Below, piece by piece: positions 43,822 to 55,778 of a stretch of DNA of 64,000 bases. This stretch comes from Coriobacteriaceae bacterium. GTDB lineage: Bacteria; Actinomycetota; Coriobacteriia; Coriobacteriales; QAMH01. The stretch is taken from assembly GCA_021203765.1 (NCBI GenBank), contig JAJQAN010000026.1, positions 2,010-66,009 of the forward strand, written 5' to 3'. The notes under the pieces were generated by a model. That model had not been told where the DNA came from, did not search any database, and saw only the letters and a program-made list of their open reading frames with translations. Within the stretch, counting starts at the first letter, position 1; the number at the start of each line of letters is the position of its first letter. The translations under genes were made by a program, and so were the position numbers.

Positions 43822-45762
43822 TTAGAGCCCGGTCGCCTTGTAGATGTAGTTCTCGCGGATCGTGCCCCTGTGGGCGACCTTCTTGGTGACGATCTTGGTC
43901 ACCGTCTTCTTTTTCTTCTTCCCGCTTTTGGTCTTGACCTTCTTGGTGACCTTCTTCTTCACCTTCTTGGTCGTGTAGTACGTGCCGTAGTACGAGTGGT
44001 AGAAGCCGACGTAGAGCACCTTGCCGACGAAATAGACCCCTTCGATCTCGTAGGCCGTGGGAACGGTGAAGCGCTTGACGTAGGTGCCGTCCCAGTCGTA
44101 GATCATGATGATGTTGCCCGAACCGCCCGATATCGTCGACTCGCTGATGAGAAGGTAGTCGTCGGTCGAGGTCATGCCCTGGTAGGTCTGCTCGACCTTG
44201 GAGGACGGTGCGACATAGGCGATTGCCGAAAAATTCTGGTCGACGATGAGCAGGTTGTGCGAGGTGCCGAGCAGCAGGACGTATTGCTTGCGCGTCGAAT
44301 TGTAGGTGATGCCAGCCAACTTCTTGATGTTGTTGACCTGAGAGGTCGTCGCTCCGTCGAGCTTGGTCTCGACCTTGATGTCGACGCTTTTGGTGACCTT
44401 GAGCGTCTTGGGATTGATGAGCGATATGCGCAGCGGGTTGGTCGTGTTGTGGATGACGGCGATCCGGTTCTTGTCGGGGTTCCACGTCATATCGTTGCCG
44501 TGACCGATGTTGAGGACTTTGGAGACCTTGACCACCTTGCGATTTGAGACACGCATCTTGACGATGCGACATTTCTCTTTGTTCTGGTTATACATCGCAT
44601 AGAAGGCGAATGTGCTGTTGGCGCAGCATCCTTCCAGCGTGTCGTATTTGTATCGCTTGAGTCCGGCACGGTCGCGCAACTCCAGGGCCTTGCCGTTCTT
44701 GCGCTTGACGCGTTTGATGCTCATATTGGTGGCTTTACCGGCGTTTTTCGAGCGGACCCACGGGGAATAGTAGGTCGTGCCGTCGTAGGTCACGTACGAA
44801 CGGACGCGCGCGTAGTAGGTTTTCGACTTCGTCAAGCCCGTCGCGGTATAGGAATTGGTCGCATACCCCTTCACCTTGGTGCTCTTCTTCGTCGCAAACA
44901 CACTGTTCTTCGACCACTGGACCTGGTAGCCGGTCACACCGCTCTTCTTGGTCCACTTGATGGTTGCGCTTGTCTTGTCTGAGGAACGCGAGATGCTCTT
45001 GAAGGTCGGCGTCGGCGCCTTGTAGATGGTCGAGCTCGCATAGCTGTCACTGAGCAGGACGTTGCCGGCCGAGTCGTTGAAGTAGGTGTAGAGGCGGTAG
45101 GTGTAGAACATGTTGTCAAAGATGTCGGCGTCGGCATACTGACGGCGGTTCGTGGAATTCATCTTGCTGATACGCGTGAAGCCCTCATCCTCCGGCGTCG
45201 GGTTGCTGACAACAGGCGGCTCCTCTTCCCCGGGCTCTTCACTTTCGGTTGCGGACGCGTTCGGGTCGTCGGCCTTGCGGTAGAGGACATAGCCGACATC
45301 CTGCGAGCTCTTGTTCCACTGCAGTTTGATGGAGCCTGCGGTCTGGCTCGTCGCGGTCAGTGAGACGGCTTTGGGCGGCGTATCGGAGACGGCGACGGCA
45401 AGCGGCATGATGGCCGCATCCGAAGCGGCATCGTCGAAGGGCTCCGGAAAGGAATCGGTCTCCGCGTCCGGATCGGCTTCAGGATAGGCAACGTCATCTT
45501 CGACGGCCGTCACATCGGTGGGTTCGTCCACAACGACGCCATCGTCTTTCGAGAGGTCTTCGGAGATCGCAGGCTCATCGGCGGAGGTCTGAGCGTCGGT
45601 CTGTTCCGGGAGATCGGATGAGGCGCCTTGCGCAGAATCGGAAGCGAAGGCGGAAAAAAGACCGCTCGGCGCCAGACCGACCAGCAACGCAAGCGCGAGC
45701 AGGGCGATGCCCGCCCTTTGGAGCGTGCGGCACGGATGTAGGCAGGATTTTCCGTTCTTCAT
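43822..45762 (-). CDS. Secreted protein: signal peptide, acidic linker, two Fn3-like domains, beta-rich (propeller-like) domain, and a lysine-rich ribbon near the C-terminus
   Basis: N-terminal IALLALALLVGLAPSGLFSAFA signal-like segment. Fn3-like segments (GSIKLQWNKSSQDVGYVLYRK; TSATIKWTKKSGVTGYQVQWSKN...TYYARVRSY). C-terminal TTKKVKKKVTKKVKTKSGKKKKKTVTKIVTKKV. Visibly lower GC than its neighbours. Confidence 0.7.
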   Translation of the reverse strand: MKNGKSCLHPCRTLQRAGIALLALALLVGLAPSGLFSAFASDSAQGASSDLPEQTDAQTSADEPAISEDLSKDDGVVVDEPTDVTAVEDDVAYPEADPDAETDSFPEPFDDAASDAAIMPLAVAVSDTPPKAVSLTATSQTAGSIKLQWNKSSQDVGYVLYRKADDPNASATESEEPGEEEPPVVSNPTPEDEGFTRISKMNSTNRRQYADADIFDNMFYTYRLYTYFNDSAGNVLLSDSYASSTIYKAPTPTFKSISRSSDKTSATIKWTKKSGVTGYQVQWSKNSVFATKKSTKVKGYATNSYTATGLTKSKTYYARVRSYVTYDGTTYYSPWVRSKNAGKATNMSIKRVKRKNGKALELRDRAGLKRYKYDTLEGCCANSTFAFYAMYNQNKEKCRIVKMRVSNRKVVKVSKVLNIGHGNDMTWNPDKNRIAVIHNTTNPLRISLINPKTLKVTKSVDIKVETKLDGATTSQVNNIKKLAGITYNSTRKQYVLLLGTSHNLLIVDQNFSAIAYVAPSSKVEQTYQGMTSTDDYLLISESTISGGSGNIIMIYDWDGTYVKRFTVPTAYEIEGVYFVGKVLYVGFYHSYYGTYYTTKKVKKKVTKKVKTKSGKKKKKTVTKIVTKKVAHRGTIRENYIYKATGL

Positions 45763-47082: not shown

Positions 47083-47757
47083 TCAGATCTCGACCTTTTT
47101 CCACGGCTTGCCACAGGACATCTTGCCTTCGGGACAGACACCGCTCGTGCAACCCGGTCCAGCGATCGAGAAGATGTACGGTGCCGTCGGGGTCACTAAT
47201 TCTAGCATCTTCATCGCCACTTCACGTATCTCCCACTGGGCACGGTTACAGCATCGTAAACTGAAGAAGTGGAGGAGTTCACGGATGTTCATGGTAACGA
47301 CGATCTTCGTCTCGCAGGCGTTCGGCAGCAGATAGCGGGCGTCTTCGGCCGGAACCCCCGCCTCGATCAGCTGGCTGTAGGCCTCAAACGCCGCGGTCGC
47401 GGCCTTATCGAAGGCCTCCTCCTGGCCGGCCTCGACGACCGTGTCCGGGGTGATGAACTCCGGCTCCTCCTGGAAGGTGACATAGCGCTGCGACTGCTGG
47501 TTGAACGAGGCCATGCGATGGCGGACCAGCTGGTGGGTCATCGCACGGGAGACCCCGTCGATGGCGAAGGTGTAGGAGGCGTGCTCGAGCGTGGAGAAGT
47601 GCCCGCCGCGCAGAATCGTGGTCAGCACCTTGTGGATGCGCTCCTCATCGAGCGTTTCCATCAGCTCCTTCGCGCCGACCGGCGCATAGCACAGACGTGC
47701 CGCCGTCGCCACGGCACGTTCCGGATCGGGGGTGTGATAGAGCAGTTCGACCTGCAT
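47083..47757 (-). CDS. thyX: FAD-dependent thymidylate synthase
   Basis: GHFSTLEHASYTF and the ThyX motif QLVRHRMASFNQQSQRY. Start set to ATG 47757, with GAGGAGG upstream. Confidence 0.9.
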   Translation of the reverse strand: MQVELLYHTPDPERAVATAARLCYAPVGAKELMETLDEERIHKVLTTILRGGHFSTLEHASYTFAIDGVSRAMTHQLVRHRMASFNQQSQRYVTFQEEPEFITPDTVVEAGQEEAFDKAATAAFEAYSQLIEAGVPAEDARYLLPNACETKIVVTMNIRELLHFFSLRCCNRAQWEIREVAMKMLELVTPTAPYIFSIAGPGCTSGVCPEGKMSCGKPWKKVEI

Positions 47758-47916
47758 GATGAGACCTCCTCGACAGCCGGCGGCCCATCGGGCCGCACGA
47801 ATCGTTGGTATGCCAAGCAGTGTAGTACAGGCACGGGGCGGGATGGCGGGATGGCGGCCGCGGACTCCCGCGAACACCACGGGGCGCGCCCTCAAAGGGC
47901 ACGAAAGGGCGCAGGG

Positions 47917-50900
47917 CTAATCATCGTCGTTGCTGGTGCGTTCGTTCTCGTCGAAGCCCTTCGAAGCTTCCTTCTGCTCTTCGTTGAAGAGCTCGGCGCG
48001 GTACTTCTCGTATTCGGTCGCCTTGGTGTGCTCCGTCGGGGTGTTGACGACGATCTGCGGGAACGGTATGTCGATCTCGTGATCGTCGAAGAGAAGTTTC
48101 ATCTCGCGGTTGAGATCGCGTTCGAGCTGCGGGCGGTCCTTCTCCTCGCACTGCACTGCGATGCGGAGCATGACGGCGGAGTCCTCGAAGGCCACGACGC
48201 CACGGTAGTACGGGCCCTTGATGATGGCAGGCAGGCGCTCGCCGATCTTGGGCAGCTCCTCGGCAAGGATGTTCTCCACGCGTTCGATCGATTCGTCGTA
48301 GTCGATGCCGACCTCGATGGAGAGATAGGAGTACTTCTTGGTCATGTTGATGACGTCGTTGACGTCGCTGTTGCGGATGATCTTGATGTTCTGGGCGGCG
48401 TCCTCGATCTTGATCGTGCGTATGCCGATCTCCATGACGGTGCCGCGCCAGTCGTCGACTTTGATGATGTCGCCCACCCTGAACTCGCCTTCGAAGATGA
48501 TGAAGAGGCCGGAGATGATGTCGCCCACCAGCTCCCGTGCACCGAGGCTGATGGCGATGGAGAGGATGCCGGCCGAGGCGAGGAGCGTGGTCGTGTCGAT
48601 GCCGATGAGGACGAGACAGTAGTAGATCATGCCGATGGCGGTGGCGTACTTGATGAAGCTGCGCAGCAGGCGACAGATGGTCTCGCCGCGGGCGTTGAGT
48701 ACACCGCCGAGCAGCGACAGGAGCCACTCTATGACCACGACGAGCGTGACGGCGACGCAGATGAACATGATGCAGGCGGTGATGGCGAAGATGTTGAGGC
48801 CGTGCTCCCAGTTGCCGCCGAGGATGTAGGCGAAGATGGAGTCGCTTGCAAAGATCTGGTCCTGGAAGATGACGAGGATGAAGACGAAGACGACGAAGAT
48901 CCCCAGCACCCAGCGCAGTATCGACGAGGTCTTCTGCCACGCCGTCCGCTCGTTCCAGGCAAACGACGAGTTGAGCCAGCGGCTCGCCGCCGAGTCCGTT
49001 CTGACGGTACGGCCGCCCGGCAACTCCACATCGATGATGCGCCCGCTGCCCCCGGCGTCGGGGTCGCCTGCTCCGTAGATGCGAATTTTGCGCTTAGGCC
49101 CAAAGGAGAGCAGGAAGAACACGATCAGCAGGCAGACGAGTGCCACCGCCCCGACGACCAGCGTCAGGGGCACCCGCTCGTCCATGAGCTCGTCTTCGGT
49201 GGTGGCGATGTAGAAGTAGTAGTTGTCCGTCTCGGCCGAGGAGGCGTAGTAGGTCGTGCCGTCTATGGTGAGGTAGTCGCAGTAGCCGTCCTTGAGCTCG
49301 CGCTCCGTCATGCCGAAGTCGAAGACGGACTCGCCGATGAGCAGCGGGTCGGGATAGTAGGCGAAGGTGTCGTCGTCGCGGTTGACCGCGAAGGCGAAGC
49401 CGTCGGAACCGGACTTGACCCCTTCGAGGACGGTGTCGATCTGCGCGGTCTCGAGCAGGCTTTCGAGGAAGGCCGGCCGCACGGCGACCTGCACGATGCC
49501 GTCCACCTTGCCCGATGCGTCGTGGAGTGGCACCCCGATGTACTGCCAGATCTCTCCGGAGTTCTCGTCGGTCTGCGGATCCTGGACCACCGAGTCCACC
49601 TCGCCGTGCAGCAGCAGCGTGAAGTCATAGGACGGATCGTCCGGATCGTCGCTCAGATGCTCGGTGACGATGGCGGAACTCGTCGCCGTCATCGTCCCGC
49701 TCGCGTCGTAAACGAGGATGTTCTCGGTCTGCAAGACGTCGGCCAGCTTGACGAGGGACTCATGGTTTTCGAGCGAGGGATTCTGATCGAGGATGTAGGC
49801 GGCGATGCGGCAGGTGGGCAGGTAGCGCTCGCCGTACTGGTCGTTCAAGGTTTCGACGCGGTCGAGCGAAGTTTCCATGCTCGCAACCGTCTCCTTGATG
49901 CGCTCGTTGTTCGCGACGGATTCGGAGGAAAGCGCAAACAGCGTCTGCATGTAGAAGGAGACGACGAGTATGAGGATGAAGCCGACGAGCGAGAGGACCG
50001 CCGCCTTGCGGGCGAGCGGCCGGTTGAAGTGCGAGGTCCTCACCTCCTGCAGCTCCTCATCTGTCTCGGTACTGACGGAGTTTTCGCGCTCGTCCTCGCG
50101 CATGGCGAAGATGCCGTACATGATGACGACGAGCATGACCGCAAGGAAGGCGAACAAGATGATGCCCACCGTGATGTTGCGGGCGGACGTCATGTCGCTT
50201 TCCGGTATCGCCGCCACGTAGTACATGTTGTCGATCTGGGTGACGCCACAGTAGTAGCGCTGCCCGTCGATGTTCATCCAAGAAAGGTTGCCTTCCTCCA
50301 GATCCTCGACAGGGACGCCGTGGACGAGCGCGTCGGTGTTGATAAGCGAGGCGTCCGGATAATATTCGACCAGATAATCCCGGGACGAAATGGAGAAGAT
50401 GAAACCGCTTTGGCCGACGGTGATGTCCTCGACGACGCTTGCGGTCGAACCGGCATCCGCGATGAGCTCACGCAGCTCTGTCGGGTCCTTTTCGATGACG
50501 GCCATGGTGTTATCGTCGATCTGGGCGGCGTAATAACGCATGAGCCAGTCCTTGTCGGGAACCTCGATCTCGACCGCCTCGGAAGGCTTCCCGTCGTCGA
50601 AGACCGTCCGCAGCTGGTTGAAGCGCGAAGAGCTAAAGTCGGCGAGCGTGTCTTGTGCCTGCGCCACGATCTTGCCGCCTTTGGTGACCACCAAGACGTT
50701 GTCGACGTCGAGGAGGTCTTTATACTCGCGCATCTTGGCGTTGGTCGCCTTGAAGCCGGCGTTGTTGTGCGCCATGAAGCCGATGCTGCCGACCAGCGTC
50801 TGACAGGTCTCGTCGAACGAGCGTGTCGTCTCGGCGACGCTGGCGTCGGCCGAGCCGATCCGATCGGGCAGGTCGGCGAGTTCTTCTTGGATCTCTTCGG

Positions 50901-51018
50901 TGTAGTTGTCCAGGTAGAGATTGGTCTGCATCGTGGAGAGGAGCACGCCCATGACGGCCATGCTGGCGACCGCGACGACGATGAGGAGGACGATTTTTAT
51001 CTTAAGAGTCCTGGACAT
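47917..51018 (-). CDS. MscS-family mechanosensitive channel with two tandem Cache-like extracytoplasmic modules
   Basis: The C-terminus has an MscS core (LGARELVGDIISGLFIIFEGEFRVGDIIKVDDWRGTVMEIGIRTIKIED...IRNSDV). The N-terminal roughly 660 aa consist of TM-ectodomain-TM repeated twice. The ectodomains contain Cache-like strings (SGFIFSISSRDYLVEYYP; DGFAFAVNRDDDTFAYYP). Confidence 0.8.
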   Translation of the reverse strand: MSRTLKIKIVLLIVVAVASMAVMGVLLSTMQTNLYLDNYTEEIQEELADLPDRIGSADASVAETTRSFDETCQTLVGSIGFMAHNNAGFKATNAKMREYKDLLDVDNVLVVTKGGKIVAQAQDTLADFSSSRFNQLRTVFDDGKPSEAVEIEVPDKDWLMRYYAAQIDDNTMAVIEKDPTELRELIADAGSTASVVEDITVGQSGFIFSISSRDYLVEYYPDASLINTDALVHGVPVEDLEEGNLSWMNIDGQRYYCGVTQIDNMYYVAAIPESDMTSARNITVGIILFAFLAVMLVVIMYGIFAMREDERENSVSTETDEELQEVRTSHFNRPLARKAAVLSLVGFILILVVSFYMQTLFALSSESVANNERIKETVASMETSLDRVETLNDQYGERYLPTCRIAAYILDQNPSLENHESLVKLADVLQTENILVYDASGTMTATSSAIVTEHLSDDPDDPSYDFTLLLHGEVDSVVQDPQTDENSGEIWQYIGVPLHDASGKVDGIVQVAVRPAFLESLLETAQIDTVLEGVKSGSDGFAFAVNRDDDTFAYYPDPLLIGESVFDFGMTERELKDGYCDYLTIDGTTYYASSAETDNYYFYIATTEDELMDERVPLTLVVGAVALVCLLIVFFLLSFGPKRKIRIYGAGDPDAGGSGRIIDVELPGGRTVRTDSAASRWLNSSFAWNERTAWQKTSSILRWVLGIFVVFVFILVIFQDQIFASDSIFAYILGGNWEHGLNIFAITACIMFICVAVTLVVVIEWLLSLLGGVLNARGETICRLLRSFIKYATAIGMIYYCLVLIGIDTTTLLASAGILSIAISLGARELVGDIISGLFIIFEGEFRVGDIIKVDDWRGTVMEIGIRTIKIEDAAQNIKIIRNSDVNDVINMTKKYSYLSIEVGIDYDESIERVENILAEELPKIGERLPAIIKGPYYRGVVAFEDSAVMLRIAVQCEEKDRPQLERDLNREMKLLFDDHEIDIPFPQIVVNTPTEHTKATEYEKYRAELFNEEQKEASKGFDENERTSNDDD

Positions 51019-51030
51019 GCCGCTTCCCCG

Positions 51031-51873
51031 TCAGTCCCACTTGTCGATCAGCCAGGCGATGGTGCCGTCGTCGAGCATGCCCTGGATGGTTTCGGAGACC
51101 GGCTCGCTCAAGGCGGAGTCCTTCTGGGTGGCCACGCCGTATTCCTGTGTGGCGATCTGAAAGTCGAGCAGGTGGCGCTCGTCGTTCATGAAGGTGTAGG
51201 AGATGGCGCCGTCCATGCAGGCGGCGTCGATCGTGCCTTCCTCGAGGGCATCGGAAAGATCCTGATAGGACGTCAGCTGTACCAGGTGGAAGTTGTCGAA
51301 GAGCACATCGGAGTTGTCCTCGTTGGCCTTGATGGGCTCCCCGGAGGTGAAGCCGATCTCGGCCAGGCGCTCGGTCAGCTGCGCGGCGGCATTGGAACCG
51401 GCCACCGTACCGAAGGTGCCGCCCTTCAGATCCTCGATGTCGTCGAAGAGCGAGGAGTCCTCCACCATGATGACGGAGACGTCCTCGTAATACGCCGGAG
51501 AGAAGTCGAAGTTCTCCAGGCGCGTGTCGGCGATCGAATAGCAGGCGATGATGCAGTCGACCTCGCCGTTTAAGAGCTGTTCTTTGCGTGTTTCGGGTGT
51601 TGCGGTGATGAATTCGACGTCGGCGTAGCCCATACGGGAGGCCATCTCGTCGGCGATGTCGATCTCCAGTCCCGAGTACTTGCCGGCCTCTTCGTTGTAG
51701 TAGCCGAAGCCGGAGACGTTGGCGCGCACGCCGACGCGCAGCGTGCCGGTGCCCGACGAGGCGCTCCCGTCATCCGCGCCGCAGCCGACGAGGCCGGCGA
51801 GGGCGAGACAGAAAAGCAAGACGACACACGCGACGAGTGCCGCTCTCCATCTTCTCGTCCGTACCATCTGCAT
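51031..51873 (-). CDS. Family-3 (amino-acid type) solute-binding lipoprotein, orphan
   Basis: Lipobox LAGLVGC. LRVGVRANVSGFGYYN, GLEIDIADEMASRMG and DCIIACYSI are typical of SBP_bac_3. The stop lies 12 nt before the channel gene start. The true start may be the second ATG (51867). Confidence 0.8.
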   Translation of the reverse strand: MQMVRTRRWRAALVACVVLLFCLALAGLVGCGADDGSASSGTGTLRVGVRANVSGFGYYNEEAGKYSGLEIDIADEMASRMGYADVEFITATPETRKEQLLNGEVDCIIACYSIADTRLENFDFSPAYYEDVSVIMVEDSSLFDDIEDLKGGTFGTVAGSNAAAQLTERLAEIGFTSGEPIKANEDNSDVLFDNFHLVQLTSYQDLSDALEEGTIDAACMDGAISYTFMNDERHLLDFQIATQEYGVATQKDSALSEPVSETIQGMLDDGTIAWLIDKWD

Positions 51874-51986
51874 ATGCTCCCGGGGCCGAATCTTTACGAG
51901 TTAGACGTGTTGGCGTCCATTATAGGTTATAGGCAGCGAGAAATAATCCGCCTCAAGCGATTTTTTGTGCCTGTCTGATGTGACGG

Positions 51987-53678
51987 CTAGCGCTCGTCGT
52001 CTTCGTCTTCGGAGGAGGTTTCGCCTTCTTCTTTGACCTCTTCGACGGCGGCGGCCTCTTCCACGGCCTCCTCGGCGGCGGCGCTTTCCTCCAAGCCTTC
52101 TTCGGCGGTCTCGGCCTTCTCGACCGCACGCCCGGCCTTTTCAGCCTTCTTCTCGGATGGCGCCTCCTCGAGCTTTTCGACCTTGACTTCGGCCTCCTCG
52201 AGGGCCTTCTCGGTGTCTTCGGCCTCCTCGAGGACCACGCCTTCGCCTTCGGTCGCGACGTCTTCGAGGACTTCGGCGTCGGTGCGCTTCTTGTCCTTGA
52301 CGAAGATGATGCCCATGACGAGCATCGCGGCAGAGATGATCGCCATGACGAGGAAGGCGACGTTGAAGCCGAACATGTCGGCGTTATCCCCTTGGGTGGT
52401 CGTCGAACCTTCCGCCACCATGGCGGCGATGCCGACCAGAAGCGCGGCACCGATCGCGCCGGCGATGGTCCGCAGCGAGGAGATGAGCGCGGTGGCGTCT
52501 GCGACCTCCTTCTCCTTCACGAACGATACGCCCCACGTGGTGAGCGGCATGAGGATGAAGGCGATGGCGATGGCGGCCAGGGCGTAGAAGATGGACGAGA
52601 TCCAGGGACTCCAGTCCTTGGCGACGAAGAACAGCGCCAGGTAGGCGATGACCTGCAGGATGGCGGAGGGGATGTAGAGCTTACGCATGCCGAAGCGGTC
52701 GTAGAGCCCGCCGGCGAACGGATTGATGACGGCGTTGAGCAGGCCGCCCGGCAAAAGGATCAGGCCGGAGATGATGGCCGACAGGCCCAAGATCTCCTGG
52801 ATGTACTGGGGCATGAGCACGCCGCCGCCCATCAGGCCGAAGTAAAGGACCATGATGGAGATGGTGGCGACGGTGAATTCCTTGTGCTGGAAGATGCGGA
52901 TGTTGAGGAACGGCACCTGGAGGCGGAGCTGCTGGATGACGAAGATGACCGCCGCGATGACGCCGATGGCCAGCGGAAGCCAGGTGGCCCAGCTTTCGAT
53001 ACCGTAGTTGGCGATGTTGCCGATGCCGAGCGTGATGCCGCCGAAGGCGAAGATGCTGACGACGAACGAGGGGAACTCGAAGTGCTCGTTTTCGGTGTCT
53101 AAGACGTTCTTGAGCACGATCCAGGCGATGATGAAGGCGACGATCATGACGATGAGGACGAGTACGAAGATGGAACGCCAGCCGAGGAGGTCGACCATGA
53201 AACCGCTCAGGGTGGGGGCGACCACTGGGGCGGCGCCGAGCGCAAGGCCGTACCAACCCATGGCCTGGCCGCGACGCTCGGGAGGATAGATGGTGAGGAT
53301 GATGACCTGCGCCATGGAGATGATGATGCCGTTGCCGCAGGCCTGGAGGACACGACCGACGAGCAGGAACGCGAAATTGGGCGCTACCACGTCGATGGCG
53401 AGACCGATGATGACGAGGATGCCGCCGAGCAAAAAGAGACGTCTGGTGGAAAAACGCCTGATCAAAAAGGCGGTAAGCGGCATGACGATGCCCATGGCCA
53501 GGGAGTAACCGCTGACGGTCCACTGGCTTAAGGTCGACGAGATGCCGAAGTCGTCCTGCATGGCGGGAAGCGCCGTGTTGAGCGCCGTCGAAAGCAGACT
53601 CGAGGCGACACAGGCGAAGATGATGGCGAGGAAGATGAGCGATCGGGATCGGGGGGTTACGGGCACGCCTTTAGGCAT
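51987..53678 (-). CDS. MFS transporter, DHA2/EmrB-like (about 14 TM), with acidic C-terminal tail
   Basis: ALPAMQDDFGIS, WTVSGYSLAMGIVMPLTAFL.RRF, and many TM segments. The last 115 aa or so are rich in E, A and K. AAAGGA RBS is present. Confidence 0.8.
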   Translation of the reverse strand: MPKGVPVTPRSRSLIFLAIIFACVASSLLSTALNTALPAMQDDFGISSTLSQWTVSGYSLAMGIVMPLTAFLIRRFSTRRLFLLGGILVIIGLAIDVVAPNFAFLLVGRVLQACGNGIIISMAQVIILTIYPPERRGQAMGWYGLALGAAPVVAPTLSGFMVDLLGWRSIFVLVLIVMIVAFIIAWIVLKNVLDTENEHFEFPSFVVSIFAFGGITLGIGNIANYGIESWATWLPLAIGVIAAVIFVIQQLRLQVPFLNIRIFQHKEFTVATISIMVLYFGLMGGGVLMPQYIQEILGLSAIISGLILLPGGLLNAVINPFAGGLYDRFGMRKLYIPSAILQVIAYLALFFVAKDWSPWISSIFYALAAIAIAFILMPLTTWGVSFVKEKEVADATALISSLRTIAGAIGAALLVGIAAMVAEGSTTTQGDNADMFGFNVAFLVMAIISAAMLVMGIIFVKDKKRTDAEVLEDVATEGEGVVLEEAEDTEKALEEAEVKVEKLEEAPSEKKAEKAGRAVEKAETAEEGLEESAAAEEAVEEAAAVEEVKEEGETSSEDEDDER

Positions 53679-54347: not shown

Positions 54348-55778
54348 CTACTTGTTCGCCAGAACGGGCAGCTCCTCTTTGACTTCTTCGTCGAGGTTGT
54401 GGTCGTAGACGAAATGCTTGGTCTCGCGCGCGATGACGTTGGAGAGCACCAGCACGGCGATGCAGTTCGGCACGGCCATAAGCGCGTTAGTGATATCTGA
54501 TATGTCCCAGACCACCGAGGCTTGGCTGATACAGCCCCAAAAGACGAAGATCAAGAAGACGACGTAGTACGGGATGATCGCGTGCTTGCCGAACAGATAG
54601 GTGATAGCTCGGTTGCCGTAATACGACCAACCGAGCATCGTAGAGTAGGCGAAACATATCATGCCCACCCCTAAAACGATCGGTCCGACTATCGGTATGG
54701 AGTTGAACGCGGTGGTGGACAGGTCCGCACCGGCTGCGATGTTTCCTGCCTCGATCTCCGCGGCGATTTCGGGATGGGCGAGCATCGTGCTGACCAGCAT
54801 GATGCCGGTGAGCGCGCAGACGACGACCGTGTCCCAGAAGGTGCCGGTCATGGAGACGAGCGCCTGACGGGCCGGGTTGCGGGAGACGGCACTGGAGGCG
54901 ACGAGCGGTGCGGAGCCCATGCCTGATTCGTTGGAGAACAAGCCGCGCTTGAAGCCGTACTGCAAGGCGAGCATGATGCCGCTGCCGACGACACCGCCGA
55001 AGGCGGCATGCCCGGTAAACGCGCAGACACAGATCTCGGAGATGGCCGGTCCGACGTACTGCCAGTTCATGCAGATGATGACGATGCAGCCCACGGAGTA
55101 CAGGATCGCCATGCTCGGGACGAGCTTCTCGCAGACGTTGGCGATGGACCTGATGCCGCCGAGGATGACGATGGCGACGAGGACAACGAGGATGATGCCC
55201 ATGAGCCAGCCGGGTATCTGGTTCACGTAGCTTACGACGACGCCCGTCACGGAGTTGGACTGCACCGAGGCGCCGATGCCGAAGGAGGCGACGGCGGCGA
55301 AGATCGCAAACAGGATGGCGAGCGTCTTGCCGATACCCTTGTGCTTGAAGCCGCGCTCCAGGGCATACATCGCGCCGCCGAGCATGTTGCCCCGATGGTC
55401 TTTCACGCGGTACTTCATGGAGATGTAGCATTCGGAATACTTGGTGGCGATGCCGAAGACACCGGTGATCCACATCCAGAAGATGGCGCCCGGTCCGCCG
55501 AAGAGCAGGCCGGTCGCGACACCGACGATGTTGCCGGTGCCGATGGTGGCTGCGAGCGCCGACGTCAAAGCACCGAACTGGCTGACATCACCTTCGGCCT
55601 TCGGGTCGTTGCCCGTAACCGAAAGCTTGATGCCGGTGACGATCTTACGCTGGATGAACCTCGTCCGTATCGTCATGAAGATATGGGTGCCGACCAGCAA
55701 GACGATCATCACCCAGCCCCAGACGAAGTCGTCGACGGCGGCGACCCCCGCACTGAAGGCGTCTATAAATGCGTCCAT
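54348..55778 (-). CDS. Alanine/glycine:cation symporter (AGCS family)
   Basis: SQFGALTSALAATIGTGNIVGVATGLLFGGPGAIFWMW and NESGMGSAP are AGCS hallmarks. Confidence 0.88.
   Translation of the reverse strand: MDAFIDAFSAGVAAVDDFVWGWVMIVLLVGTHIFMTIRTRFIQRKIVTGIKLSVTGNDPKAEGDVSQFGALTSALAATIGTGNIVGVATGLLFGGPGAIFWMWITGVFGIATKYSECYISMKYRVKDHRGNMLGGAMYALERGFKHKGIGKTLAILFAIFAAVASFGIGASVQSNSVTGVVVSYVNQIPGWLMGIILVVLVAIVILGGIRSIANVCEKLVPSMAILYSVGCIVIICMNWQYVGPAISEICVCAFTGHAAFGGVVGSGIMLALQYGFKRGLFSNESGMGSAPLVASSAVSRNPARQALVSMTGTFWDTVVVCALTGIMLVSTMLAHPEIAAEIEAGNIAAGADLSTTAFNSIPIVGPIVLGVGMICFAYSTMLGWSYYGNRAITYLFGKHAIIPYYVVFLIFVFWGCISQASVVWDISDITNALMAVPNCIAVLVLSNVIARETKHFVYDHNLDEEVKEELPVLANK

Follow-up and report, generated by a model that had tools for sequence, protein, structure and literature searches.

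Introduction

Why should a gene for an amino-acid-type binding lipoprotein stand directly beside a gene for a mechanosensitive channel, with no transporter at hand to which it might belong? The question is raised by a 64-kb stretch of DNA from a gut actinobacterium (Coriobacteriaceae bacterium), here called the window, whose coordinates are used throughout. On its minus strand it encodes a 280-aa lipoprotein of the SBP_bac_3 family of solute-binding proteins (SBPs; 51031-51873) and, downstream of it, a 1033-aa MscS-type channel (47917-51018). MscS channels are treated as osmotic safety valves, and chemical control within the family is discussed mainly for a few cases, namely MscK, with external K+, and the bCNG channels. 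The pair described here suggests an undescribed channel that is controlled by an external chemical signal. We lean, with modest confidence, towards reading it as an SBP-stimulated double-Cache (dCache) sensor of the LuxP/LuxQ kind, in which an MscS pore takes the place of the kinase as output.

Results

A binding protein without a local transporter

Both open reading frames (ORFs), their coordinates and the 12-nt gap between them are, by the ORF list, as an earlier note on this DNA had claimed, and the GGGGAAG run within the gap implies operon-type coupling of the SBP and channel genes. The note's description of the first product as a family-3 binding lipoprotein with an LVGC lipobox also holds: the lipobox can be read directly from the sequence, and Pfam SBP_bac_3 is matched with E 2.7e-25 and 89.1 bits (cut-off 26.4), the two-lobe family-3 signature being present. 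When the window SBP was aligned with 74 homologues (n = 75), a lipobox-like motif was found by strict pattern in 61 of the 75 sequences; most of those that fail the pattern show either an LxGC or LPAC variant or a wrongly called start.

The NCBIfam models of binders for Lys/Arg/Orn (1e-27), Asp/Glu (8e-24), cystine and glutamine are all matched below their equivalog cut-offs, and we therefore class the SBP as a family-3 binder of the polar amino-acid type with no assignable specificity. Its closest relatives in the PDB are the substrate-binding domain of GlnPQ (6h30), AncQR (4zv1) and PEB1a (2v25), and nearly all of the 54 PDB relatives at E <= 1e-5 are amino-acid binders. The ligand anchors of family 3, a Ser/Thr and an Arg in lobe 1 and an Asp in lobe 2, are present as S113, R118 and D221, which 97% or more of the 75 sequences retain. 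The T-x4-R of the GlnP substrate-binding domain and of AncQR falls opposite S113 and R118 when the proteins are aligned, and we take the trio to be equivalent to S72, R77 and D161 of LAO/HisJ, which anchor the alpha-carboxylate and alpha-ammonium groups of amino acids.

No importer was found beside this protein. A motif check of the 64-kb window for ATP-binding cassette (ABC) ATPases found no ORF that combines Walker A with an LSGGQ-type signature, and the permease and ATPase genes that would mark the SBP as a subunit of an ABC importer do not adjoin it in the window. An ABC ATPase-like ORF, again as judged from motifs, occurs in the flanks of only 10 of 80 homologous loci, and seven of these ten have an ORF of 595-615 aa, the size of fused exporters. 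That the SBP has no ABC partner nearby, as the earlier note had observed, is thus borne out by both the window and the flanks of its homologous loci.

Conservation of the pair

Relatives of the channel, sought in one genome per species, were present in 521 genomes, and the best 80 loci were examined. In 75 of them a homologue of the window SBP (48-68% identity) terminates shortly ahead of the channel gene, and the spacer measures 7-26 nt in all 69 measurable homologous pairs. The two proteins also diverge together, in that the percent identities of SBP and channel to the window proteins are correlated (r = 0.75). The hosts are Coriobacteriia (Gordonibacter, Eggerthella, Enteroscipio, Adlercreutzia, Raoultibacter, Collinsella, Olsenella, Enorma, Senegalimassilia and Slackia) and isolates of Lachnospiraceae (Bariatricus and Mediterraneibacter). 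Beyond the SBP and channel, no window gene is common to the 80 loci. A LysR-type regulator lies convergent with, and immediately downstream of, the channel gene in 29 of the 80 (for example L052:9195-10145, minus strand) and might control the pair in the genomes that have it; it is missing from the window, where thyX stands in its place.

The family extends well beyond these close relatives. The N-terminal 700 aa of the channel, searched against 1.84 billion cluster representatives, matched 999 at E <= 1e-3, 586 at E <= 1e-10 and 167 at E <= 1e-30. Many of the matched proteins have approximately 1000 residues and can be aligned over their whole length at 22-35% identity, and the MscS beta-domain is present in 47 of 47 sampled full-length representatives, with other kinds of output in none. 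An SBP_bac_3 gene lies immediately upstream in six of nine distant representatives (P0122, P0124, P0128, P0137, P0152 and P0212), whose identity to the N-terminal part of the window channel falls from 41% to 22%; the remaining three have no SBP neighbour (P0143, P0172 and P0235). The genes overlap or abut in four of the six distant pairs (L084, L087, L088 and L090). The distant SBPs match the window SBP from end to end at 29-51% identity, with its motifs in common, and are encoded in loci of 31-58% G+C, and in four of the six pairs the SBP (38-41% identity) is better kept than the N-terminal sensor region of the channel (22-34%).

When metagenomes were scanned with distant members as seeds, a further 17 loci with the pair and 16 without it came to light among those with enough upstream DNA. 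Beside the unpaired clades no other binding-protein family was found, the upstream genes being GH43, MatE, redoxin, PLD, S41 peptidase and HAD. A rough neighbour-joining tree, two of whose sequences (L016 and L073) are probably mis-picked ORFs, shows a crown clade that is almost wholly paired, with a few losses, and deeper branches in which lineages with and without the SBP are intermingled. Given the orthology of the SBPs, this is read more simply as an ancient association that was lost repeatedly, but the tree is too crude to serve as proof. Synteny across loci argues that the SBP-channel pair is not a chance juxtaposition, and the two genes that the earlier note had treated as partners are indeed kept as immediate neighbours among close loci and distant representatives alike.

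Two further groups of sequences emerged from these searches. Several loci (L010, L011, L012, L044, L046, L066, L072 and others) carry copies of the pair that are 47-54% identical under implausible host labels, including Bacteroidaceae, Succinivibrio, Prevotella, Phocaeicola dorei, Faecalibacterium and a Methanomethylophilaceae archaeon. All belong to one 'cleanbin' series of metagenome-assembled genomes, and the contigs look like mis-binned sequence rather than evidence of true hosts. Separately, a stand-alone subgroup without an SBP is made up of longer proteins of 1100-1170 aa (L113, L116, L118, L124 and L167; P0244, P0254, P0255 and P0267). By Pfam, the extra length of the long members holds neither an SBP nor a new domain, only Cache and MscS families being matched.

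Predicted fold of the two ectodomains

Sequence profiles give an incomplete account of the two extracytoplasmic domains of the channel. Pfam dCache_1 (PF02743) matches aa 409-600, within ectodomain 2, with E 2.4e-7 and 31 bits, under the gathering cut-off of 45; ectodomain 1 has no match in a Pfam scan, and at E <= 0.001 dCache_1 is matched in only 16 of 47 distant members of the channel family. A profile search of the PDB with ectodomain 1 returned spurious weak matches only (Osh1, TFIIA). As ectodomain 1 is unassignable by sequence profile, its fold was taken from structure prediction. AlphaFold2 (AF2) was run separately on aa 1-340 and on aa 341-700, from an alignment of 74 sequences in each case, and the models reached a mean predicted local distance difference test (pLDDT) score of 87.2 for ectodomain 1 and 84.4 for ectodomain 2. 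In both, a long helix continuous with a membrane helix leads into a distal alpha/beta module, from which a connecting helix runs to a proximal alpha/beta module and a return membrane helix. Foldseek comparison with the PDB placed dCache-type sensor domains in all of the top 50 matches of both ectodomains, at probability 1.00 and over about 230-345 aligned columns (most 240-290). The matches include PscC (6mni, E 1.7e-9), Mlp24, Mlp37, Tlp3 and DctB for ectodomain 1, and Mlp37 (6iov, E 1.8e-10), CtaA, Mlp24, PscC and PctA/B/C for ectodomain 2.

Both ectodomains are accordingly modelled as full dCache folds. The Cache-like character that the earlier note had read from G-F-x-F...YYP strings is thereby extended to a double-Cache in each, and the strings themselves are present as G-F-I-F...E-Y-Y-P-D and G-F-A-F...A-Y-Y-P-D and are mutually alignable. 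Between the two proximal modules a collinear alignment covers 87 aa with 31% identity (E 9e-14), and this paralogy implies that the N-terminal 640 residues of the channel are a tandem duplication of one unit composed of a transmembrane segment (TM), a dCache domain and a second TM.

Neither domain resembles a canonical amino-acid sensor at its pocket. The AA_motif that defines the dCache_1AA group comprises Y121, R126, W128, Y129, Y144 and D173 in PctA numbering (PMC8915833). A pattern for its N-terminal part, [YF]-x3-5-R-x-W-[YF], was found in none of 120 close members of the channel family, and when the family profile of ectodomain 2 is compared with Mlp37, the proximal module alone aligns, the distal modules being unalignable with Mlp37 or PctA. 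From these two results we conclude that the dCache domains do not belong among the canonical amino-acid sensors. A motif whose chemistry is unlike that of the AA_motif, D-Q-S-Y-x-F ... Q ... D-x-G ... Q-Y-I-G ... V-Q, is kept down to ~25% identity in the distal module of ectodomain 2 (aa ~455-520).

Membrane layout and channel core

A hydropathy scan of the channel identified eight segments (aa 9-27, 282-300, 339-357, 618-636, 700-718, 745-763, 789-807 and 809-843). K and R are abundant in the N-terminus and in loops 637-699 and 771-786, all on the predicted cytoplasmic side, and the two ectodomain loops are strongly acidic (D+E vs K+R of 45 vs 18 and 51 vs 13). Together, hydropathy and charge give a layout in which the N-terminus is inside, ectodomain 1 outside, TM2 and TM3 form a hairpin, ectodomain 2 is again outside, and TM4, a 60-aa linker, TM5 and the three MscS helices follow, with the C-terminus inside. 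The layout proposed from the first reading of the sequence was right in its order and had missed one helix, TM5.

The linker between TM4 and TM5 (aa 637-699; 48922-49110, minus strand) carries the strongly conserved motif P-x-G-R-x3-T-x-S-A-A-S-R-W ... W-x-E-K/R-T-A-x-Q-K, with R670, S676, A678, R680, W688 and Q695 invariant in the channel alignment, and AF2 models it at low confidence as a short beta-hairpin and a helix. It could be a coupling element or a regulatory site.

The core that follows places the channel in the MscS family (TC 1.A.23), and by sequence comparison this core is complete. Pfam MS_channel_1st (PF21088) is matched at aa 790-827 with 26.8 bits (cut-off 23.1) and MS_channel_2nd (PF00924) at aa 830-893 with E 4.9e-14 and 52.6 bits (cut-off 20.2); the match to MS_channel_3rd (PF21082) is weak, at E 0.0043 and 17.9 bits, under the cut-off of 21. 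The Thermoanaerobacter MscS structure 3udc aligns with aa 779-993 over 215 residues (E 3.2e-35), and 3t9n does likewise. In a hand alignment from the F-R-x-G-D/E motif, L105, L109 and G121 of E. coli MscS correspond to I821, L825 and G837, so that the counterparts of the gate residues, I821 and L825, are hydrophobic. After aa 843 the hydropathy scan shows no further membrane segment, and the last 40 residues are hydrophilic.

Genomic setting

The features of the pair are collected in the table. The neighbours in the window are an MFS transporter, a MoaE-like protein, a sodium:alanine symporter, ThyX, a DUF1385 protein and an exonuclease. A promoter scan of the minus strand at the pair, with parameters not tuned to Actinomycetota, made no call. 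A TATAAT at 51919-51924, seen by eye, is not decisive as a promoter; nor is a weak terminator-like hairpin at 51948-51960 (minus strand), between the MFS and SBP genes, decisive. A search of 47600-52300 against Rfam gave no match to a riboswitch or other RNA element at E <= 1. A 1434-aa ORF on the plus strand (47269-51573) was rejected as a gene: it is antisense to the channel and SBP genes and has no family match, and it recurs in other loci because it is the shadow of a conserved channel gene in G+C-rich DNA.

The MFS transporter whose gene immediately precedes that of the SBP (51987-53678, minus strand) has a low-complexity tail of ~90 aa rich in Glu, Ala and Lys. A gene of the sodium:alanine symporter family (54348-55778, minus strand; E 4.7e-125), which lies two to three genes upstream of the SBP, is common to only one of 80 homologous loci and so is probably an incidental neighbour. 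Further along the window, a secreted-looking protein of 646 aa (43822-45762, minus strand) has one fn3 match and an extremely Lys-rich C-terminal stretch, KKVKKKVTKKVKTKSGKKKKKTVTKIVTKKV; beyond fn3, no family could be assigned to it.

Table 1. Features of the SBP and channel genes in the window, in order of transcription
Feature	Coordinates	Strand	Residues	Remarks
SBP signal peptide and lipobox	51781..51873	-	SBP aa 1-31	L-V-G-C at aa 28-31; Cys31 predicted lipidated
Mature SBP, family 3 (polar amino-acid type)	51031..51780	-	SBP aa 32-280 and stop codon	
Intergenic spacer	51019..51030	-		12 nt, cggggaagcggc, with Shine-Dalgarno-like GGGGAAG run
K/R-rich cytoplasmic N-terminus and TM1	50935..51018	-	channel aa 1-28	Hydropathy and charge; AF2 continuous helix aa 3-48
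Ectodomain 1	50170..50934	-	channel aa 29-283	Double-Cache (dCache) by AF2 and Foldseek; no Pfam match
TM2, cytoplasmic loop of ~38 aa, TM3	49933..50169	-	channel aa 284-362	Family-wide FYMQTLF motif; invariant columns F355-L363
Ectodomain 2	49168..49932	-	channel aa 363-617	Predicted double-Cache; paralogue of ectodomain 1
TM4 and conserved cytoplasmic linker	48922..49167	-	channel aa 618-699	Hydropathy, alignment
TM5 and three MscS helices, including pore helix TM8	48490..48921	-	channel aa 700-843	Pfam, 3udc alignment, hydropathy
MscS cytoplasmic beta-domain and alpha-beta domain	48040..48489	-	channel aa 844-993	Pfam; 3udc/3t9n aligned through aa 993
Hydrophilic acidic C-terminal tail and stop	47917..48039	-	channel aa 994-1033	Hydropathy

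Discussion

What we infer about this pair, in ligand class, pseudo-dimer arrangement, route of transmission and sign of effect, runs as follows. The lipid-anchored SBP would capture a small, polar extracellular ligand, the likeliest candidate being an alpha-amino acid or a compound closely derived from one, and the loaded SBP would dock on the extracellular tandem dCache sensor of the channel. Dimeric dCache receptors operate via a four-helix membrane bundle; by analogy, a single channel chain may imitate the dimer, its two TM-dCache-TM units together forming such a bundle. Rearrangement of this bundle (TM1-TM4) would then be relayed to the MscS helices by way of the conserved linker and TM5, and would shift the tension threshold or the open probability of a presumably heptameric pore, up or down, so that the output would be a flux of ions or solutes and not phosphorylation. 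The lack of the AA_motif in the dCache domains, together with the retention of S113, R118 and D221 in the SBP, fits a delegation of ligand capture to the SBP. Dependence of an MscS relative on an external solute is also not without parallel, as MscK of E. coli, a large MscS paralogue, reportedly needs external K+ besides tension.

Several observations weigh against this proposal. The contact between SBP and ectodomain, on which it turns, is itself a step that we infer. Five of the 80 close loci have unrelated upstream DNA and no SBP, and several deep clades of the channel family are stand-alone, with unrelated neighbours, which implies that the ectodomains and channel can function without an SBP. 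No fused SBP-channel protein was found among the 47 representatives, nor when eight of them, for the most part longer proteins, were scanned again at E <= 0.01. The Foldseek TM-scores of the ectodomains are modest (0.3-0.5), which we attribute to the long helices and to the angles between modules. The SBP may in addition work for an ABC importer encoded far from this locus, and the distal motif conserved in ectodomain 2, at the usual site of the dCache pocket, could by its sequence be the pocket for another, directly bound ligand as well as a docking surface. The idea of a ligand-gated or SBP-gated channel, put forward in the earlier note, therefore survives in part: the sequence results fit an SBP-coupled, chemically modulated MscS channel, and 'SBP-gated' fails as a family-wide description given the deep branches that lack an SBP. 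Two of the outcomes that the note had named as refuting its idea, a pair not kept side by side and ectodomains devoid of a Cache fold, were looked for and did not materialise.

The most serious competitor to SBP-stimulated sensing holds that the dCache domains bind a ligand directly and modulate the channel, the SBP acting elsewhere (for example, with a remote ABC importer) or providing a dispensable second input. The many clades without an SBP neighbour would be readily accommodated, as would the conserved distal motif of ectodomain 2 at the usual pocket site, and the distal module binds the ligand in almost all studied dCache domains (PMC8050422). Direct binding sits poorly, however, with an orthologous SBP that stays immediately upstream, and often overlapping, down to 22% channel identity and across 31-58% G+C, that no ABC genes accompany, and that in distant pairs is better kept than the N-terminal region of the channel itself; on balance we regard it as unlikely. 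A more conservative alternative would make the channel an ordinary tension-gated osmotic valve, in which the ectodomains and lipoprotein play a structural part, as an envelope tether or in shaping the membrane, and no small-molecule signal is involved. Such a valve would be in keeping with the complete MscS core, with database annotation merely as a mechanosensitive channel, and with the big accessory domains of uncertain role in MscK, MscM and YbiO. Against this, both accessory folds are classic ligand-binding folds, and the SBP keeps the Ser/Arg/Asp trio that we equate with the anchors of alpha-amino acids. Since dCache domains are moreover the commonest extracytoplasmic chemical sensors (PMC8050422), a purely structural role appears improbable.

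It is also conceivable that the SBP delivers its substrate to the mouth of the channel for uptake or exchange through the MscS pore, in a manner reminiscent of tripartite ATP-independent periplasmic (TRAP) or ABC transporters but without their energy source. Here it is the docking geometry that is awkward, as the SBP would have to approach a heptameric pore crowded by 14 dCache domains, and the channel has no MscCG-type C-terminal extension. The MscS relative MscCG does carry glutamate, and the SBP has no other local partner; yet the MscS pore is wide, weakly selective and not energised, so that substrate could not be accumulated and high-affinity capture would bring little benefit. We give this route very little credence.

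The databases annotate the channel as 'mechanosensitive ion channel', and precomputed Pfam results flag dCache_1, so the domain combination is already visible there; full-text literature searches for MscS or mechanosensitive channels with Cache domains or binding proteins found no paper that describes such a channel, and the one paper that mentions both a mechanosensitive channel and a Cache domain was unrelated. The sensing module and the pore are each known, and the combination is one not yet described or studied. Among outputs, a 2021 review of such sensing names chemoreceptors, sensor kinases, cyclic di-GMP enzymes and Ser/Thr kinases; direct output through an ion channel is absent from it, and the word 'channel' appears nowhere (PMC8050422). 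With at least 167 clusters (50% identity, E <= 1e-30), members in the cultivable human-gut genera Eggerthella, Gordonibacter, Collinsella and Bariatricus, and a soluble partner amenable to purification and ligand screening, the family offers a well-defined test case. Coupling of the kind proposed would, if real, reveal how a metabolite outside the bacterial cell is turned into an electrical or osmotic response, and would provide a modular ligand-controlled pore. A bolder version, which we consider doubtful, makes the pair a bacterial ionotropic receptor, in which an amino acid captured by the SBP and read by the dCache pseudo-dimer would open or lock the heptameric MscS pore without osmotic shock. 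Were it true, Coriobacteriia and Clostridia of the gut would turn a chemical cue straight into ion or solute flux, Cache/SBP sensing would gain a new class of output, and the channel would be the first of the MscS family to be gated by an extracellular ligand.

Comparison with known systems

Among MscS relatives, MscK, MscM and YbiO of E. coli share with the channel a C-terminal MscS core, extra membrane helices and a large extracytoplasmic N-terminal part. To our knowledge, their N-terminal domains are not Cache folds and have no associated binding protein. The NCBIfam models for MscK (65.1 bits, cut-off 991), MscM (43.2, cut-off 809) and PRK11465 (90, cut-off 596) match the C-terminal core only, and membership of MscK or MscM was rejected for want of a full-length equivalog match. 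MscCG of Corynebacterium glutamicum and the bCNG channels are likewise MscS relatives with proposed functions beyond osmotic release. An extra C-terminal membrane segment after the MscS cytoplasmic domain is typical of MscCG-type exporters. The channel has no hydrophobic segment after aa 843 and nothing links it to amino-acid export, so that an exporter of this type was rejected and the analogy to MscCG-type efflux drawn in the earlier note finds no support. The absence of a cyclic-nucleotide-binding domain by Pfam led us to reject bCNG as well.

The ectodomains find their best structural matches among the dCache_1AA chemoreceptors (PctA/B/C, Mlp24, Mlp37, CtaA and Tlp3). They differ from these in lacking the AA_motif, in aligning by sequence only at the proximal module of ectodomain 2, and in the output to which they are joined. 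Two eukaryotic assemblies resemble the pair in overall plan. In ionotropic glutamate receptors, a clamshell resembling an SBP is joined to a pore. The alpha2delta subunit of voltage-gated calcium channels has two dCache_1 domains and modulates an ion channel (PMC8915833). Both are analogies only, as the pores are unrelated, the parts are separate or differently fused, and homology is limited to the folds.

An actinobacterial example of signalling by the same binding-protein family is GlnH, an SBP_bac_3 protein that signals Asp/Glu to GlnX/PknG (PMC8050422). As in the GlnH/GlnX/PknG system of Mycobacterium tuberculosis, the window encodes an actinobacterial SBP_bac_3 lipoprotein that would be used for signalling, and GlnH (6h1u) is among the relatives of the window SBP (E 1.8e-8). 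The partner of GlnH differs in having a four-helix-bundle sensor, a kinase output and no channel.

The closest comparison is with SBP-stimulated receptors. In LuxP/LuxQ and its counterparts, a dedicated SBP gene stands beside the receptor gene. Those with dCache-like sensors include, besides LuxP/LuxQ, HptA/HptS, CBP/ChiS, NspS/MbaA, ScrB/ScrC and the archaeal BasB/BasT and CosB/CosT; in ydbE-ydbFG, too, the binding-protein gene adjoins the receptor gene, and ScrB is itself an SBP_bac_3 protein (PMC8050422). The stimulus that these receptors commonly transmit is a lateral displacement of membrane helices (PMC8050422). Here the output is an MscS pore, the two sensors lie in one chain instead of a homodimer, and the contact between SBP and sensor is putative. 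The pair nevertheless has both of the features by which such a receptor is recognised, namely an adjoining SBP gene and an extracytoplasmic sensor domain, and resembles these receptors further in the predicted double Cache/PAS fold of that sensor, set between membrane helices, and, in the case of ScrB, in the family of its binding protein. It is as the nearest functional precedent that the SBP-stimulated receptors led us to propose the model of docking and gating set out above.

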